Source of the DNA: an uncultured Bacteroidales bacterium | GTDB taxonomy: Bacteria; Bacteroidota; Bacteroidia; Bacteroidales; TTA-H9 | Assembly: GCA_964444785.1 (NCBI GenBank) | Contig: CAYUII010000008.1 | Location: forward strand, 44,776 to 108,775 | Direction of reading: 5' to 3' | DNA: 64,000 nucleotides | Made by a program: the position numbers and the translations under genes | Part shown: positions 13,041-64,000 of the stretch, one piece after another | Numbering within the stretch: position 1 is the first letter of the stretch | Layout of the letters: each line of letters starts with the position of its first letter | Notes under the pieces: model-generated | What the model was told of the DNA's origin: nothing | The model's input: the letters and a program-made list of their open reading frames with translations, nothing else | Databases searched by the model: none

Positions 13041-13919
13041 CTAAGGAAGCGGAGTTTTTTCTTGTATATCGAGCAGTTCAATACATTTAATTAAACTTGA
13101 TCTCCAGTGAGGTATTTCAAGTTGAAGTTCCTCAGATATCTTTTCTTTATTAAAGACGCTAAAGCAGGGTCGAGGAGCTGGCAGGGGGTATTTATCGGTG
13201 GTTATTGGGACAACTTTACAATCAATCATCGATAGTTCAATGATGGCTTGAGCAAAGTCATACCATGAACAGACACCTTGGTTTGAGAAGTGATAGACTC
13301 CAGGAGTAATATTTTTTTTAACAGCCTGGATTATCGCTTCGGCTAAGTCGGCCGCCCAGGTTGGAGAGCCGACTTGATCAAACACTACCCTGAGCATTCC
13401 CCTTTCTGCTCCATATTTCCGCATTGTCTTTACAAAGTTATGACCAAACTGTGAATAAAGCCATGCGGTTCTAATAATTACGGTGTTAGGGTTTTCTTCT
13501 AAGGCCAACGACTCACCGCCGAGTTTTGATCTGCCATAGTATGAGGCAGGTTGAACAGGATCGGTTTCTCGATAAGGGAGCCAAGCATGGCCATTAAAGA
13601 CATAGTCGGTGCTTATATGAATGAACCTTGCATTAAATTTTGCAGAAACTTTGGCTAGGTTTTTTGGTCCAACTGCATTAATTTGCCATGCTTTTTCTTG
13701 TTCCTCTTCTGCTTTATCAACCGAGGTATAAGCTGCACAATTGACAACCCAATCAATTTTGTGGGATTCAAAGAAGGCCTCTAAGGCGTTGTAATCAGTG
13801 ATATTAAGATCTAAATCTTTGAATAGAAAGACCAGATCAAGATTATCTTTGGCCAACAATTGCAGCTCGTTACCTAGCTGGCCATTGCTCCCTGTGACTA
13901 AAATTGATTGTTTTGTCAT
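13041..13919 (-). CDS. rfbD: dTDP-4-dehydrorhamnose reductase-like SDR (RmlD family)
   Basis: It has the Rossmann motif [11 protein letters not shown], the catalytic YGRSK (YxxxK) and RmlD-like length. There is a 4-nt ATGA overlap with the upstream gene. Confidence 0.75.
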
Positions 13920-16480: not shown

Positions 16481-16520
16481 TTTTATAGCTAAGGTTTTTC
16501 GTTTTATAGCTAAGGTTTTT
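16481..16520. repeat. two identical 19-bp direct repeats (TTTTATAGCTAAGGTTTTT) with a 21-bp period
   Basis: The copies lie at 16481-16499 and 16502-16520, immediately 5' of the 16524-16614 hairpin in the ugd / acyl-CoA synthetase divergent intergenic region. Confidence 0.85.
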
Positions 16521-16523
16521 TTT

Positions 16524-16614
16524 ACCTCTTCGCTTCCCCTTCGCTTCCTCTCCCTATTTGCCCGTTTAAACAGCGAGCAGAAGCGAAGAAGAAGCGAAGG
16601 GGAAGCGGGGAGGT
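16524..16614 (+). repeat. inverted-repeat element copy 1 (24-bp stem, 43-nt interior) built from 11-bp-phased CTTCGCT / AGCGAAG units
   Basis: ACCTCTTCGCTTCCCCTTCGCTTC (16524-16547) pairs with GAAGCGAAGGGGAAGCGGGGAGGT (16591-16614) as 22 Watson-Crick plus 2 T:G pairs. CTTCGCT lies at 16528 and 16539. AGCGAAG lies at 16582 and 16593, with AGCGGGG at 16604. Confidence 0.85.
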
Positions 16615-31093: not shown

Positions 31094-31247
31094 CCTCTTC
31101 GCTCCCTCTCCATATCTTCTTCGCTTCTTCTCTATACTATTGTTAGAATGTAAATATGAAATCAATGAGTAACAACATGGCTTCATCTCTTTTCGAGGTC
31201 ATTTTTTCGTTCAAATAGGGACCATGTATGGAGAGGAAGCGAAGAGG
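31094..31247 (+). repeat. inverted-repeat element copy 2 (22-nt terminal arms enclosing 110 bp)
   Basis: CCTCTTCGCTCCCTCTCCATAT (31094-31115) faces GTATGGAGAGGAAGCGAAGAGG (31226-31247), giving 20 WC pairs, 1 T:G and 1 mismatch. CTTCGCT lies at 31097 and 31119 (22-bp spacing). Confidence 0.85.
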
Positions 31248-31250
31248 ATG

Positions 31251-31358
31251 GGTTTTTGGCGGCTAGCGGTTAGCTTCTGGCTTTTGGCGGCTAGCTTCTG
31301 GCCAGCTGCCAGCCGCCAGAAGCCAGAAGCCAGAAGCCAGTAGCCAGAAGCCAGAAGC
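31251..31358. repeat. about 100-nt GC-rich hairpin whose 3' arm is a (GCCAGAA)6 heptamer tandem repeat, directly 3' of the PKD-like lipoprotein gene
   Basis: nt 31273-31292 pair with 31311-31330 (20 bp, one T:G) around an 18-nt loop containing CAGCTG. Imperfect pairing extends to about 31251/31352. The six heptamer units span 31315-31356, with one GCCAGTA variant. TTTTGGCGGCTAGC is duplicated at 31254 and 31282. Confidence 0.85.
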
Positions 31359-31360
31359 TT

Positions 31361-31744
31361 TTACTTTCCCAGTGCTGGAATCTGAATAGTCTGGCTAGTG
31401 TAATTATCCTTCTTAGAGGCAGTGTCAGTAGCCTTCAGGTTTATGAGATAGGATGCGGGTTGAGAAAGCTTGGGGTAATAAAATGTGGGGTTGACCTCTT
31501 GGCTTTGACTGTTATTGTATCCAAATTTCCAGAGGTATTTTTGGGCTCTTAGACTTGTGTTGGTAAAGACCACTTTCACCTGATTATTCATGTTAATAGC
31601 TTGGTAAGAAAAACCCGCAATGGGGTCGAAAAGGGTCTCAAGATTTTTGTTCCCTTCATCTTTATCTTTAGAGCAGGAGAAAAAGGGAGAAATGAGCAGT
31701 AAAGCTAGGAGAAGAATAATTGGTTTTTGAATTAACTTATTCAT
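31361..31744 (-). CDS. small PKD-domain-like lipoprotein
   Basis: MNKLIQKPIILLLALLLISPFFSC is a lipobox signal. The body has a PKD-like pattern (VVFTNTSLRAQKYLWKFGYNNSQSQEVNPTFYY...YLINLKATD). The track start at 31834 is unlikely. Confidence 0.55.
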   Translation of the reverse strand: MNKLIQKPIILLLALLLISPFFSCSKDKDEGNKNLETLFDPIAGFSYQAINMNNQVKVVFTNTSLRAQKYLWKFGYNNSQSQEVNPTFYYPKLSQPASYLINLKATDTASKKDNYTSQTIQIPALGK

Positions 31745-31818
31745 GGATATTATAATTAGAAAGATAATGCGATATAGCCGCCGTTTCGGCAAAAATAGAT
31801 AAATTGGGAGAATAGCAT

Positions 31819-31826
31819 TACCTTTG
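31819..31826 (+). promoter_or_regulatory. candidate -7 promoter box for the uvrD/pcrA-like helicase gene
   Basis: TACCTTTG matches TAnnTTTG, 24 nt upstream of GTG 31850. Confidence 0.35.
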
Positions 31827-31849
31827 TTTAGCATATATTTATAGAGTAA

Positions 31850-36268: not shown

Positions 36269-36316
36269 TGACAGATTGTCGCAATGATGTCTGTGGCAAA
36301 GTTTTTGCCTATGACA
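36269..36316 (+). promoter_or_regulatory. TGACA/TGTC palindromic motifs upstream of grpE-dnaJ (candidate operator)
   Basis: TGACAGATTGTC lies at 36269-36280. The imperfect palindrome TGTCTGTGGCAAA-GTT-TTTGCCTATGACA lies at 36288-36316. TTGTCGCAATGAT resembles TTGTCAAAATGAC upstream of clpB. Confidence 0.3.
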
Positions 36317-59031: not shown

Positions 59032-61148
59032 TTTGTATCTATCTTCTTTAAGTATCTAGCTAATATTGCCTCTGAGGGTTCTCCATTGGAGTCTTTGATT
59101 TCGGTGAATGGGACTTTGAATGTACATCCTTCACGCCATTGGCTACAACCATAAGCTTCTCTGCCCTTAATCAAATTTCCTTTTTTACAAGATGGGCAAA
59201 TGAGTGAGGGAGGTGTCTTAGGGGAAGAAGTTTTAGTATTCTTCTCTTTAGGTGTCTCTCCCTCTTTTTTAGTCTCTTTTTTCTTTTTGTTTGATTGGGA
59301 AGGGGCTTCTTTTGGGGGTGTGTTCTCAATCTCAATTGAAGAGCGATGATAATCTGTTACTACCTCTTGAACAAGACTAAAGACCATCTTTTTCATCTCT
59401 TCAATAAATTCGGAGGCTTCGTAAATTCCTCTTTCTATTTCTCTTAACTTTTTCTCCCATTGCCCGGTAAGTTCTACAGATTTAAGTAGTTCATTGCCGA
59501 TTGTTTCAATCAGTTGAATACCGGTGACGGTTGGTTCGAGGTTTTTGCGTACTCGGCGTATATAATTTCTTTTAAAGAGGGTTTCAATGATAGCGGCTCT
59601 TGTGGAGGGTCGTCCGATTCCATTGTCTTTTAGGGCGTCACGAAGTTCATCATCATCGACCTGTTTTCCGGCAGTCTCCATCGCTCTGAGGAGGGTTGCT
59701 TCGGTGTATGGTTTTGGTGGTTGTGTCTGTTTCTGTTGGATACCTGGTTCATGTGGGCCTGACTCTCCCTTTTCAAAGGCCGGCATGATCTGTTCTGCCT
59801 CCTCTTTATCCTGTTCGTCGACACCATCGTTATTTGTGCCCTCAGGATCTTGTTTTGCCTGCTTTTTATAGAGTATACGCCAGCCATCCTCCAGAATCTG
59901 TTTTCCGGTCGCTTTGAAGGGTATCGCTGCTGCTTCCCCTAGAACGGTTGTGTTCGATACAATACAATCGGGATAGAAGGCAGCAATAAACCGACGGGCG
60001 ACGATATCAAATACCTTCTTTTCGTTAGAGGTCATTACACTTCCATTAAATTCACCTGTCGGAATAATGGCGTGGTGGTCAGTAACTTTTGAATCATCAA
60101 AGACCTTTTTGCTCTTTTTGATTTTTGTTTCAAGAAGAGGCTCTGTAAACTCTTTGTAGGGAGTTAGCGAGGTTAATATCGCAGGTATTTTTGGGTAAAT
60201 ATCGGAAGGGAGGTAGGTGGTGTCAACTCTGGGATAGGTTACTTGTTTTTTCTCGTATAGCTGTTGAACCAGATTGAGGGTTTGTTCGGCGGTGAACCCA
60301 AACTTTTTATTACATTCAACTTGTAAGGAGGTTAAGTCAAAGAGTCTGGGGGGTGCTTCGTTTCCTTTCTTCTTCTCGAAAGATGTTATTATGAAAAGGG
60401 AATCCTTGATTTTGCTTAGCGCTTGATTTGCTTCGTCAACGGAGTTAAATCGACCCGATACCGCTGAGAAGGTTACATCGCGGTAGACCGTCTTTAAGTC
60501 CCAATAATCTTCCGGAACAAAACGAGTGATCTCTTGATGTCGTTTGACAATCAGGGCAAGCGTGGGAGTCTGGACTCTTCCCACAGAGAGCACTCCCCGT
60601 CCTTGGCTATATTTGACTGTATACAATCGCGTTGCATTAATTCCTAAAAGCCAATCACCTACAGCACGTGTATGTCCAGCATAGAATAATCGATCAAAGG
60701 ATGCCCCCTCTTTTAAATGACTGAATCCTTCTTGAATAGCTTGGGAAGTCAAAGACGAGATCCATAACCGTTTAACAGGTAATCTGTTCTTCGCTAGCAA
60801 TAATACCCATCTCTGAATCAGTTCCCCTTCCTGGCCTGCATCACCGCAATTAATGACCTCTTGGCTGCGCTCAAGCAAGTGTACTATCGTTCGAAATTGT
60901 CGCGAAACGCCTTCGTTTTCGATTAACTTAACCTGAAATTTCTGAGGGATGATAGGCAAAGTGCTCAACCTCCATTGTTTTAATTCAGGAAGATAGTCTT
61001 CGGGTAACTTGAGCGTGCAGAGGTGCCCAAAGGTCCAACTGACAAGGTAACCATTCCCTTCATAATATCCATCACGACGCTGTGAAGCTCCTAAGATTTG
61101 AGCCAATTCTTTCGCAACACTTGGTTTTTCAGCTATACAGAGTTTCAC
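59028..61148 (-). CDS. topB: DNA topoisomerase III (type IA)
   Basis: It has the Toprim start MKLCIAEKPSVAKELA, then SVGRVQTPTLALIV and the active-site Tyr context VTYPRVDTTYL. The C-terminal Cys-rich zinc-ribbon-like tail is CPSCKKG...CSQWREGC. Confidence 0.9.
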   Translation of the reverse strand: MKLCIAEKPSVAKELAQILGASQRRDGYYEGNGYLVSWTFGHLCTLKLPEDYLPELKQWRLSTLPIIPQKFQVKLIENEGVSRQFRTIVHLLERSQEVINCGDAGQEGELIQRWVLLLAKNRLPVKRLWISSLTSQAIQEGFSHLKEGASFDRLFYAGHTRAVGDWLLGINATRLYTVKYSQGRGVLSVGRVQTPTLALIVKRHQEITRFVPEDYWDLKTVYRDVTFSAVSGRFNSVDEANQALSKIKDSLFIITSFEKKKGNEAPPRLFDLTSLQVECNKKFGFTAEQTLNLVQQLYEKKQVTYPRVDTTYLPSDIYPKIPAILTSLTPYKEFTEPLLETKIKKSKKVFDDSKVTDHHAIIPTGEFNGSVMTSNEKKVFDIVARRFIAAFYPDCIVSNTTVLGEAAAIPFKATGKQILEDGWRILYKKQAKQDPEGTNNDGVDEQDKEEAEQIMPAFEKGESGPHEPGIQQKQTQPPKPYTEATLLRAMETAGKQVDDDELRDALKDNGIGRPSTRAAIIETLFKRNYIRRVRKNLEPTVTGIQLIETIGNELLKSVELTGQWEKKLREIERGIYEASEFIEEMKKMVFSLVQEVVTDYHRSSIEIENTPPKEAPSQSNKKKKETKKEGETPKEKNTKTSSPKTPPSLICPSCKKGNLIKGREAYGCSQWREGCTFKVPFTEIKDSNGEPSEAILARYLKKIDTN

Positions 61149-61212
61149 GGTGCTTTCTTCTTCTTTTGCAGCACAAAAGTAAAAAATCTGGACTAAAGTA
61201 GATTTTTGTTTG

Positions 61213-61470
61213 CTTGCTCTTCGCTTGCTCTCCCATTCCTCTCCATATAATGAACGGTTAAAGGTGGACTTAATAGGTTGAGATTAGGTGGTATACCTTG
61301 AGGGATAATGCAATTGCATTGATCAAAATTGGTTTTATAAAAACTTACGGAATGGTTGAGTTCCATTTTTTTGGTAACCCAAAGAGATCTTCTCTTCCTT
61401 GATTTAATCAGGATGTTTTTGTATTTATATAGAGAACGAGCGAAGGGCGAGCGAAGGGCGAGCGAAGAGG
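61213..61470 (+). repeat. inverted-repeat element copy 3 (imperfect about 35-nt arms enclosing about 175 bp)
   Basis: The left arm is CTTGCTCTTCGCTTGCTCTCCCATTCCTCTCCATATA. The right arm TATATAGAGAACGAGCGAAGGGCGAGCGAAGGGCGAGCGAAGAGG has AGCGAAG at 61439, 61450 and 61461, an exact 11-bp period. The interior holds a 14-bp perfect palindrome AATGCAATTGCATT (61307-61320) and a small hairpin plus T7 run (about 61349-61373). Confidence 0.8.
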
Positions 61471-61504
61471 TGAGGTTAGATTAGGAGGAAAAAGGATTTT
61501 TGAA

Positions 61505-61562
61505 GGTTGTCAAAATGACAGTTTTTAGAGTTGATTTTTTGTTTGGTTGTGTCAAAATGTCT
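61505..61562 (+). promoter_or_regulatory. repeated GGTTGTCAAAATG motif upstream of clpB, including a perfect TGTCA-N3-TGACA palindrome (candidate operator)
   Basis: TGTCAAAATGACA lies at 61508-61520. A direct-repeat copy GGTTGTGTCAAAATGTC lies at 61545-61561. Confidence 0.3.
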
Positions 61563-61587
61563 TATTGTATAGGGAAAAAAGCGATTC

Positions 61588-61684
61588 GGATCAGTTTTTG
61601 ATCCATGATGGTAAATCATCAAAATAGGAGGGCAAAAGGATTGAGATCCTCCTAAAGAGAGATGGTGTTGAAAGGAGAGATAAT
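61588..61684 (+). promoter_or_regulatory. structured clpB leader with an AGGAGG / CCTCCT / AGGAGA arrangement
   Basis: There are three hairpins: GGATCA/TGATCC (61588-61604), TGATG/CATCA (61606-61621) and AGGAGG/CCTCCT (61626-61653). An SD-like AGGAGA at 61673-61678 lies 6 nt before the ATG. Confidence 0.3.
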
Positions 61685-64000
61685 ATGAATTTAAATCAAT
61701 TTACAATTAAAAGTCGTGAAGCTTTAGAATTAGCTACACAGATGGCTGTTAATGGAGGAAATGGGCAGATAGATACCGCCCATTTGTTGTTGGCCTTACA
61801 TAAGGTTGATGATAACGTAATTCCATTTATGGTAGCAAAGCTTGGGGTTAATATTCAGATGATTATTAAACAGGCTGAGGCTATCGTGACGGGTTATCCT
61901 AAGGTGACAGGTGGGGAGGTTTATGCGAGTCGTGATTTGCAACAGGTATTAAATAATGCTGTGCGACTTTTAAGCAAGGGCAACGATGAGTATGTTACTA
62001 CTGGTCATCTGTTTATTGCACTTTCGGAGGGGGATGATTCGACGGGAAAGATGCTAAGAAATAGTGGGGTTCTGAGAAAGGATCTGGAGAAGGCGATGGC
62101 TGAGATAAATCAAGGTGAATCAGTAAAGAGTGCGACTGCCGAGGAGACCTATAATGCGTTAAACAGGTATGCCAGGAATCTGAATGAGTTAGCTTTGAAC
62201 GGGAAACTTGATCCTGTGATAGGTCGGGATGAAGAGATAAGAAGGGTTTTACAGATATTGACGAGAAGGACTAAGAATAACCCGATATTGATTGGTGAAC
62301 CGGGTGTAGGTAAGACGGCAATTGCTGAGGGGATTGCTCATAGAATAGTGAATGGTGATGTTCCAGATAATCTTAAATCGAAGTTGATTTTCTCGCTTGA
62401 TATGGGTTCTTTGGTTGCAGGGGCGAAGTATAAGGGAGAATTTGAAGAGCGGTTAAAGAGTGTAGTAAAAGAGGTGATCTCATCGGATGGAGCCGTAGTC
62501 TTGTTTATTGATGAGATCCATACCCTTGTAGGTGCTGGAGGGGGAGAAGGTGCAATGGATGCGGCCAACATACTTAAACCTGCGCTGGCAAGAGGTGAGC
62601 TTAGAGCAATAGGAGCTACTACCTTGAAGGAGTACCAAAAATTTTTTGAGAAGGACAAGGCATTAGAAAGAAGGTTTCAGATTGTAATGGTAGATGAACC
62701 TGATACCCTTTCAGCTATATCCATATTAAGGGGCTTAAAAGATAGATATGAGGCGCATCATCGGATAAGAATTAGAGATGAAGCAATTGTTGCTGCTGTT
62801 GAGTTATCGCAACGTTACATCACCGATCGATTTCTTCCTGATAAAGCCATCGACTTGGTGGATGAAGCTGCTGCGCGGCTTAGGTTAGAGATGAATAGTC
62901 TGCCTGAAGAGCTCGAGACGATAGAAAGGAAAATTAAACAGTTGGAAATTGAACGAGAGGCCATGATGCGTGAAGGCGACTCTGATCGAATTGGTTTTTT
63001 AAAACATGAATTGGCTAATTTACAGGAGGAGCGTACCAACTTACGTGCTAAATGGCAATCAGAGAAGGAGATTGTTGATAAGATTCAGGTGACGAAAGCG
63101 GCCATTGAGCAAGATAAGTTGAGAGCTGACCAAGCTGAGCGCAATGGTGATTATGGCTTAGTTGCCGAGCTGAGATATGGTAAGATTCGGGCTTCCGAAC
63201 AGAGTCTTATTGTTCTTAAGGAGGAGCTTCTCAAAAGACAGGGAGATTCTCCGATGATTAATGAGGAGATCGGAGCCGAAGAGATTGCAGGGATTGTTTC
63301 AAAGTGGACTGGAATACCGGTTACACGAATGCTTCAGAGTGAGCGAGAGAAGTTATTAAACTTGGAAGCAGAACTTCACAAGCGTGTTGTAGGCCAAGAT
63401 GATGCCATCGTCGCCGTTTCAGATGCGATACGTCGGTCAAGAGCCGGATTGCAGGATGCTAAGAGGCCTATTGGATCGTTCATTTTCTTAGGTAGTACCG
63501 GTGTTGGTAAGACAGAGTTGGCTAAGGCGCTGGCTAGCTTCCTATTTAATGATGAAAATAGCATGGTGAGAATTGACATGTCTGAGTTTCAGGAGCGTCA
63601 TAGCGTTTCAAGACTTATTGGAGCACCTCCGGGTTATGTGGGTTATGATGAGAGTGGTCAGTTAACAGAGGCCGTTCGTAGAAAACCTTATTCTGTGGTC
63701 TTGCTGGATGAAATAGAGAAGGCTCATCCTGATGTCTTTAATATTCTTCTTCAGGTGCTGGATGATGGTCGTTTAACGGATAATAAAGGCCGAGTAGCTG
63801 ATTTTAAGAATACAATAATTATTATGACCTCAAACCTCGGATCGCAGTTGATCCAAGAAAACCTGAGTGTAGATAAAACGCAGTTGGCATCCGTTACGTT
63901 TGAACAGACTCGAAATGAAGTGATGCTCTTATTGAAGAGAACCATGAGGCCTGAGTTCTTAAATCGAATAGATGAGATCATTATGTTTACACCTCTGTCA
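61685..64000 (+). CDS. clpB: ATP-dependent chaperone ClpB, truncated by the window end (first 772 codons)
   Basis: It is absent from the ORF track because there is no stop in the window. My hand translation from ATG 61685 gives [38 protein letters not shown]... NBD1 Walker A is [16 protein letters not shown] coiled-coil M-domain and NBD2 Walker [16 protein letters not shown] follow. The frame stays open to nt 64000. Confidence 0.93.

Follow-up and report, generated by a model that had tools for sequence, protein, structure and literature searches.

The spacer between the divergent starts of topB and clpB in an uncultured Bacteroidales bacterium contains two converging arms of 11-bp units that enclose unique DNA (copy 3 in Table 1), and this locus raises the question of whether such a segment is a dispersed repeat acting at the DNA level, a structured RNA, an array of regulatory sites or an invertible promoter. 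All coordinates given here refer to the window, i.e., the whole stretch of 64,000 nucleotides that was analysed. We favor the interpretation, with a probability of roughly 0.55, that the segment from 61205 to 61471 is a partly decayed copy of a foldback-type family of intergenic repeats that operates at the DNA level and is selfish or structurally neutral.

Structure of the element between topB and clpB

Copy 3 is located 61-65 bp from the start of topB (GTG at 61148, minus strand) and 216 bp from the start of clpB (ATG at 61686). All sequence features that a preliminary description of this DNA had listed for copy 3 were found where it had placed them. The right arm contains an array of 2.8 repeats of CGAGCGAAGGG (61437-61467/9), with AGCGAAG at 61439, 61450 and 61461, and closes with the family terminus AGAGGT (61466-61471). 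The outer terminus of the left arm, on the other hand, is decayed and does not have the ACCTCT of the family, and the arm HMM scored this left arm at 13.3 bits in the window as compared to 22.3 bits in strains L052 and L053. Complementarity between the two arms (61209-61250 and 61425-61466) is 71% over 42 nt, with one 15-nt block showing 87%; as the arms are just 71% complementary, copy 3 may no longer form any structure.

Table 1. Positions of copy 3 and its parts, of neighboring motifs and of the other two family members in the window
Feature	Position	Strand	Sequence or remarks
Copy 1	16524-16614		compact foldback, three 11-bp units per arm
Copy 2	31094-31247		21-nt arms, 95% complementary, 112 nt apart
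Copy 3	61205-61471		two converging arms of 11-bp units with approx. 175 bp of unique DNA between them
Copy 3, left arm	61205-61250		pyrimidine-rich on the plus strand; degenerate 11-bp units
Copy 3, left-arm units	61209-61219; 61220-61230		TTTGCTTGCTC; TTCGCTTGCTC; then TCCCATTCCTC
Copy 3, inner boundary of left arm	61238-61249		CCTCTCCATATA
Copy 3, interior	61251-61424		locus-specific, approx. 175 bp, 67% A+T
Copy 3, right arm	61425-61471		purine-rich on the plus strand; TTATATAGAGAA, then three units
Copy 3, right-arm units	61437-61469		CGAGCGAAGGG, CGAGCGAAGGG, CGAGCGAAGAG
Perfect 14-bp palindrome	61307-61320		AATGCAATTGCATT; in copy 3 interior
Weak hairpin followed by T7	61349-61373	+	AATGG-N7-CCATT, then T7; not convincing as a terminator
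GATTAGG motif pair	61281-61291; 61478-61488		AGATTAGGTGG; AGATTAGGAGG
Match to -7 consensus TAnnTTTG	61174-61181	-	TACTTTTG; 26-33 nt upstream of topB GTG; outside copy 3
Two TGTCAAAATG boxes	61508-61517; 61550-61559 (within 61506-61561)	+	TGTCA-N3-TGACA; between copy 3 and clpB, outside the element

The arm units clearly exceeded chance expectation in the window. The 19-mer array was matched 3 times (0.00 expected), AGCGAAG-N4-AGCGAAG was matched 6 times (0.26 expected), and CCTCTTCGCT with at most one mismatch was matched 15 times (3.1 expected), with the matches grouped at three intergenic sites; the periodicity of CTTCGCT was likewise far above chance. The boundary sequence CCTCTCCATATA by itself, with 2 mismatches allowed, was found at chance level (6 matches versus 6.2 expected) and is meaningful solely beside CTTCGCT units.

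Three features in and around the interior had been proposed as functional, i.e., the palindrome, the hairpin with T7 as a terminator and the GATTAGG pair; these did not rise above chance level, and the interiors of other family members are unrelated. The window contains 5 perfect 14-bp palindromes as compared to 4.6 in shuffled sequences, and the palindrome AATGCAATTGCATT folds with -5.8 kcal/mol (z = -1.8). The hairpin with T7 folds with -6.8 kcal/mol (z = -0.22; 74 of 200 shuffles were as good), and a terminator scan made no call at 61349-61373. The GATTAGGWGG pair is a 10/11 match that was chosen post hoc, and approx. 0.65 such pairs per 400 bp are estimated to occur by chance. An intrinsic terminator as an explanation for the element was rejected on the basis of the loop lengths (9-210 nt), the placement of copies 1 and 3 between divergent gene starts and the z-score of the hairpin with T7.

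Sigma-A promoters of Bacteroidetes have the -7 consensus TAnnTTTG. Judged by its fit to this consensus, TACTTTTG (61174-61181, minus strand) is likely to function as the topB promoter. On the clpB side, the TGTCAAAATG boxes (61506-61519 and 61548-61561 in their extended form) are related to TGACAGATTGTC (36269-36280) upstream of grpE-dnaJ; the TGTCAAAATG motif was not enriched across the window, and the TGTCAAAATG and TGACAGATTGTC boxes may have a role in heat shock in this lineage, as an operator or promoter element.

Family members in the window and in metagenome contigs

Searches with the arm HMM found exactly three family members in the window (Table 1), all of them intergenic, and in each the pyrimidine-rich arm precedes the purine-rich one, whichever strand is read. 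Copy 1, which lies between a UDP-glucose dehydrogenase gene and a divergent gene for an AMP-binding enzyme, has 41-nt arms with 9 nt between them in the repeat search and shows a fold z-score of -9; a perfect 21-bp tandem duplication (TTTTATAGCTAAGGTTTTTCG x 1.9; 16481-16520) was observed within 4 bp of its left terminus. Copy 2 is located upstream of the aconitase gene. Next to copy 2, a long hairpin of GCCAGAA/CTTCTGG heptamers (31251-31358) directly follows the stop codon of a 157-aa ORF (31361-31834, minus strand).

We used the 21-mer CCTCTTCGCTNCCTCTCCATA from copy 2 as a query for metagenome contigs and obtained 36 matching loci, 19 of which (those with N = C or T) represent true members, as compared to approx. 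1 expected by chance; 14 distinct sites were analysed among these 19 loci. The sources of the 19 loci were JACCEE01, an assembly that also contains the window's species, as well as JGI Ga0209066 (ten loci), Ga0066604, Ga0075012 and Ga0209467. In the true loci a plus-strand chain of 11-bp units is followed, 100-250 bp later, by a minus-strand chain, with the exceptions of L048, where the copy is cut by the contig end, and L034, where the copy was shortened by a deletion; the partner arm is degenerate in three true loci. Locus L034 had also been considered as a cassette consisting of a left arm followed by an Abi-like ORF. This candidate was rejected, as comparison to L033 revealed a 330-bp deletion between CCTTTTTTAA direct repeats, and the solo arm of L034 is thus only apparent.

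The other 17 of the 36 matches (N = A) were rejected as members and as a hint of a tRNA origin of the arms, as they all correspond to a tRNA gene 5' end in low-GC contigs and count as a single coincidence. In these loci (L014-L016, L019, L022, L023 and others) the 21-mer CCTCTTCGCTACCTCTCCATA is the reverse complement of the tRNA 5' end and differs from the arm at the N position alone. A stricter pattern, CCTCTTCGCTNNCCCTTCGCT, yielded only 3 chance matches in 185,579 species genomes (Streptomyces, Acidovorax and Kofleriaceae), a scan of viral contigs with CCTCTTCGCTNCCTCTCCATA yielded zero matches, and literature searches for a foldback family with 11-bp units found no description. One further contig from the window's species (Logan contig L004) stops inside the right arm of copy 3, at window position 61468. 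Overall, the family is lineage-specific and dispersed, and the earlier proposal of a multi-copy inverted-repeat family is borne out by the three copies in the window and by many more in metagenome contigs.

Family anatomy and genomic context

Family anatomy and arm statistics were obtained from 17 independent elements from at least two related genomes, which represents a small sample. These elements have a total length of 89-276 bp and 2-4 units per arm, with a conserved core CCTCT-C at an 11-bp period. The AGCGAAG unit highlighted in the preliminary description is present, but is merely one variant on this family-wide core. In most cases CCTCTTCGCTY forms the outer unit and CCTCTCCATAT the inner one; CCTCTGCGTAT, CTTCTTCGCTT and GCCCTTCGCTC are among the local variants, and adjacent units are often identical. 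Termini of the form YACCTCT...AGAGGTR were present in 14-15 of the 17 ends per side. Between the arms, members contain 9-210 nt of unique DNA, which is 64-74% A+T in most copies. With regard to gene context, elements were found between convergent (5), divergent (4) and tandem (4) genes, in some cases with flanking genes just 16-24 bp away.

Terminal inverted repeats whose outer terminus is conserved, a size below 300 bp, strictly intergenic placement and the presence of many copies would agree with a classical cut-and-paste MITE, i.e., a non-autonomous deletion derivative of an insertion sequence whose terminal inverted repeats are acted on in trans by the transposase of that insertion sequence; under this reading, YACCTCTTCGCT is the sequence expected at the ends of the parent element. 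However, no direct repeat that would represent a target-site duplication was found in the flanks of the 17 elements, and blastn comparisons among all interiors yielded matches between orthologous loci only, whereas MITE copies share their interiors. In addition, unit number and arm length vary both between and within elements, and no insertion sequence or transposase was found in the 64-kb window or in approx. 0.3 Mb of loci. These data make an origin of the family as a MITE unlikely.

The window codes entirely for housekeeping functions and provides no candidate protein partner. No Pfam domain of a Y1 transposase was found among the ORFs of the 64 kb, which also bears on the proposal of a REP/BIME or REPIN-type family whose spread would depend on hairpin recognition in single-stranded DNA by a RAYT (Y1/HUH) transposase. 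Such an element would account for an intergenic palindromic repeat with no target-site duplication, with arms that always form inverted pairs and with occurrence in all intergenic contexts. A single arm of the family is not a palindrome, though, and carries neither the GTAG nor the CGTC tag, the spacers are unique and range from 9 to 210 nt rather than being short and conserved, and arms of tandem 11-bp units are foreign to REP sequences; we thus regard this explanation as very unlikely.

The interiors were also compared in view of a possible inverton, i.e., a promoter segment flipped by a site-specific recombinase that acts on the inverted repeats. Common inverted repeats around locus-specific interiors of 100-250 bp in Bacteroidota, some of them upstream of genes, would fit such a system, but the orientation of the interior was identical in every comparison of orthologous assemblies, five members are located between convergent genes, copy 1 has just 9-23 nt between its arms and no recombinase gene was found nearby. 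No common motif was found in the interiors, and the -7 box TAnnTTTG occurred 6 times in them as compared to 2.9 times expected, which we judged not to represent an enrichment. Overall, these observations already weakly refute an inverton, which we consider extremely improbable.

Variation between strains and species

Orthologous copies from closely related strains differed mainly in the arms. Copy 3 was identical in two JGI contigs, and strains with 98-99% identical topB carry GCTCTTCGCTT in the left arm as compared to GCTCTCCCATT in the window, a difference of five changes in 12 nt that affects the third left-arm unit. Strain L053 also shows GAAC for GGGC in the first unit of the right arm, while the 175-nt interior of copy 3 shows 1-2 differences between strains. 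The arms of copy 3 match at 34 of 43 positions in L052 and L053 as compared to 31 of 44 positions in the window; as the L052 and L053 alleles pair better and have a higher arm HMM score, the window allele is the more decayed one. Locus L026 has 3 units and L043 has 4, a difference of exactly one unit. Copy 2 was near-invariant in four strains, with identical arms and a single interior substitution (in L012). Sequence comparisons show that arms are remodelled by whole units, through gain, loss or conversion, with interiors remaining nearly constant.

Two neighboring segments showed a different pattern of variation. Although the strains are near-identical, the heptamer hairpin beside copy 2 is hypervariable among them and shows many substitutions as well as 14 additional nt in L012; the adjoining copy 2 is near-invariant. 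Similarly, the 5' region of clpB (61536-61680) shows many differences between L052 and the window next to the almost invariant interior of copy 3; this divergence suggests recombination import or relaxed constraint.

Comparison of L017 to L049 and L038 revealed that synteny breaks inside an arm (L017:3045-3080). Homology between these loci covers the left flank and the interior as well as most of the right arm and stops exactly after GAGCGAAGAGG; as judged from these alignments, a rearrangement breakpoint is located inside the element arm at L017. At close evolutionary range, we found no site that was filled in one genome and empty in another with exactly defined boundaries; no autonomous copy was detected, and differences in presence or absence were seen between species only; mobility of the family is thus inferred rather than demonstrated.

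A sister species (85% and 94% amino-acid identity to the window for topB and aconitase, respectively; approx. 76% nucleotide identity between genes) provided the comparison at greater distance. The preliminary description had called for a check of presence and absence in relatives, which revealed the same arrangement of topB and clpB, lacking the element, in the sister species and remodelled arms in close strains. In the sister species the -7 box of topB is kept as TACCTTTG and both TGTCAAAATG boxes upstream of clpB are kept, while the middle of the spacer is occupied by a 109-aa ORF (L001:2104-2433) instead of the element. Copy 3 thus lies between conserved promoter-proximal motifs, in a segment with other contents in the sister species, which makes it unlikely that the element specifically regulates topB or clpB. 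The 109-aa ORF has a HEMIH (HExxH-like) motif and showed no Pfam match; the possibility that the window spacer is a remnant site of this ORF was rejected, as tblastn found no trace of it there.

The site of copy 2 contains no more than a degenerate CT-rich tract in the sister species, where the spacer measures 200 nt as compared to 396 nt in the window. Conversely, where the window has 88 nt downstream of aconitase, the sister species contains a large foldback in which at least 13 units (CTCTTATGTCT x 6.6 and ATCCTCTCAAT x 3.6) make up the left arm, followed by a 22-nt loop and a right arm that consists of ATAGGGAGAGG x 3.5, an assembly gap of approx. 215 N and GAGGGGAACAG x 3.2. The arms of the family are thus able to expand greatly, and copy 3, which had been described as the largest copy, is the largest within the window but is greatly exceeded in size by that of the related species. 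The segment with the large foldback is enclosed by a 36-nt direct repeat (81% identity; L054:12374-12409 and 13113-13148, at a distance of 739 bp), which could represent a long target duplication or a local duplication. As members occupy different sites in the two species, the family is older than the species split and turns over between sites. Distant relatives with 70% topB identity (L008-L010) showed no synteny with clpB; in one of these, several kb of 304-bp tandem repeats with tiny ORFs that have no Pfam match are located upstream of topB (L008:979-4253).

One possible explanation for the phased units could be operator arrays for a DNA-binding regulator or nucleoid protein, with paired arrays that loop or insulate the enclosed DNA. 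The strict 11-bp period, which approximates one helical turn, the conserved 6-7-nt core with variable spacer positions, the similarity of the phasing to that of Pho boxes and ParR-type iterons, and the location of copies 1 and 3 between divergent promoters are consistent with this explanation. On the other hand, convergent and tandem gaps contain elements just as often, at 16-24 bp from stop codons, the flanking genes are unrelated housekeeping genes with no common regulon, the elements have no common position relative to promoters, and unit sequence and number drift freely between strains. As topB and clpB of the sister species lack the element though their promoter motifs are kept, we consider operator arrays to be rather improbable, and copy 3 probably has no specific regulatory role for topB or clpB.

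Arm co-variation and tests for an RNA

To count pairing between the two arms of an element, we aligned their outer 33 nt in all 17 elements. Paired cells represented 83.1% of the observed data as compared to 78.4% in shuffles (0 of 500 shuffles as high), and cells changed on both sides numbered 50 as compared to 29.1 in shuffles (0 of 500); in slid registers, only 48-59% of cells were paired. The type of the second-rank unit co-varies between the arms of an element, and arm identity was 0.761 within elements versus 0.684 between elements (0 of 10,000 permutations). Loci L029 and L046 have perfect arms of 26-31 bp that include their idiosyncratic third units. These data show that the arms of one element are kept matched, i.e., that they co-evolve.

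Co-variation of the arms would also fit selection on an RNA helix. We assessed the possibility of a structured RNA in which a long helix closes a variable interior and serves as a processing stem for RNase III, as a 5'-UTR structure or as an sRNA precursor that is co-transcribed with adjacent genes. The plus-strand fold of copy 3 has a continuous 23-bp stem with G.U pairs (-84.9 kcal/mol, z = -3.4) and the minus-strand fold is weaker (-65.7 kcal/mol); furthermore, some copies, such as L036, fill gaps between co-directional genes and must thus be transcribed. Mismatches of the G.U type, though, were balanced between strands (37 on the plus strand versus 36 on the minus strand, i.e., T.G versus C.A mismatches), and for the four copies in tandem context the transcribed strand showed 5 wobbles versus 10 C.A mismatches. 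No Rfam family scored above its gathering threshold in the whole window (best scores of 14-19 bits versus thresholds of 40-230), copies are also found between divergent promoters, the interiors have nothing in common, and sister strains have a stronger copy 3 helix than the window. Arm complementarity therefore comes without an RNA signature, and we hold a structured RNA to be improbable. Neither the Rfam search nor the strand distribution of G.U-compatible mismatches lent support to the plus-strand RNA of 120-250 nt that had been proposed for this interval, and nothing suggests that copy 3 makes an RNA or controls its neighbor genes.

Comparison with known repeat families

Drosophila FB elements have long inverted arms of short tandem units. 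Foldback-like elements (FB, Galileo and Tetris) resemble the family described here in these inverted arms of short tandem units, the number of which is unequal between elements and between arms, in their heterogeneous middles and in their association with rearrangement breakpoints. The tandem arm repeats of Galileo provide multiple binding sites for the transposase (PMC3688188). Unlike these elements, which are eukaryotic, the family described here is prokaryotic, is 10-100 times smaller and has 11-bp units, and no target-site duplication or transposase was found for it. In its design, the eukaryotic Foldback type is the closest architectural match; the resemblance is architectural only, with no sequence relationship.

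The REP/BIME and REPIN sequences of Proteobacteria (background is given, in part, in PMC3333891 and PMC3116915) are also dispersed, extragenic and hairpin-forming, occur as inverted pairs with no target-site duplication and are tolerated in transcription units as well as between convergent genes. A REP unit, however, is an imperfect palindrome of 20-40 bp with a GTAG or CGTC tag and short conserved linkers, whereas the arms of the family are arrays of non-palindromic polypyrimidine 11-mers with unique spacers, and no RAYT was seen. Bacterial MITEs (Correia/NEMIS, ERIC, RUP and BOX) share small size, non-coding character, intergenic location and terminal inverted repeats with the family. BOX and the MITE of P. 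gingivalis, which contains an internal minisatellite (PMC4596501), also resemble it in having modules in variable number; MITEs differ from it in their shared interior, in their target-site duplications and in variable modules that are internal rather than in inverted arms.

Arrays of heptamers (STRR, TAACTGA repeats) have been described in Cyanobacteria, Beggiatoaceae and some Bacteroidetes (PMC4679880). Like the family, these are lineage-restricted intergenic arrays of short units that differ in copy number between strains; they are direct 7-mer arrays, often just upstream of start codons, whereas the family has 11-bp units that always form inverted pairs. The GCCAGAA hairpin beside copy 2 belongs to the same kind as the STRR-type arrays. 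Overall, the family is best read as a previously undescribed, REP/MITE-like variant within the known class of dispersed intergenic hairpin repeats.

Preferred interpretation and significance

If copy 3 is a partly decayed member of a foldback-type family, as we favor, the arms would act at the DNA level, either as iterated sites to which a transposase, a recombinase or another trans-acting protein binds, or as DNA that forms hairpins or cruciforms. Slippage and template switching between the arms could keep these complementary, dispersal would depend on a trans-acting protein that recognizes the phased 11-bp unit, and copy 3 would occupy a dispensable gap between the topB promoter and the upstream boxes of clpB. 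One observation that argues against a mobile element at the DNA level is that interiors differ between all non-orthologous loci; elements that are copied whole usually have theirs in common.

A bolder version of this interpretation, which we put forward as speculative, is that the family represents the first prokaryotic counterpart of Foldback elements, in which 11-bp sites for a transposase, recombinase or architectural protein, together with template switching, would produce complementary arms that could expand to hundreds of bp and would promote chromosomal rearrangements.

Copy 3 is an ordinary, somewhat decayed member, and it is the design of the family rather than this locus that carries the interest. 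REP, REPIN and MITE sequences shape genome structure, mRNA stability and assembly quality in bacteria, and dispersed hairpin repeats are poorly catalogued outside Proteobacteria and Firmicutes. The family described here shows an unusual design, in which arms of phased 11-bp units co-evolve and turn over by whole units between strains around unique interiors; it breaks metagenome assemblies and marks one synteny breakpoint. Its cognate protein, if one exists, would point to a new mobilization or DNA-organizing system in Bacteroidota.
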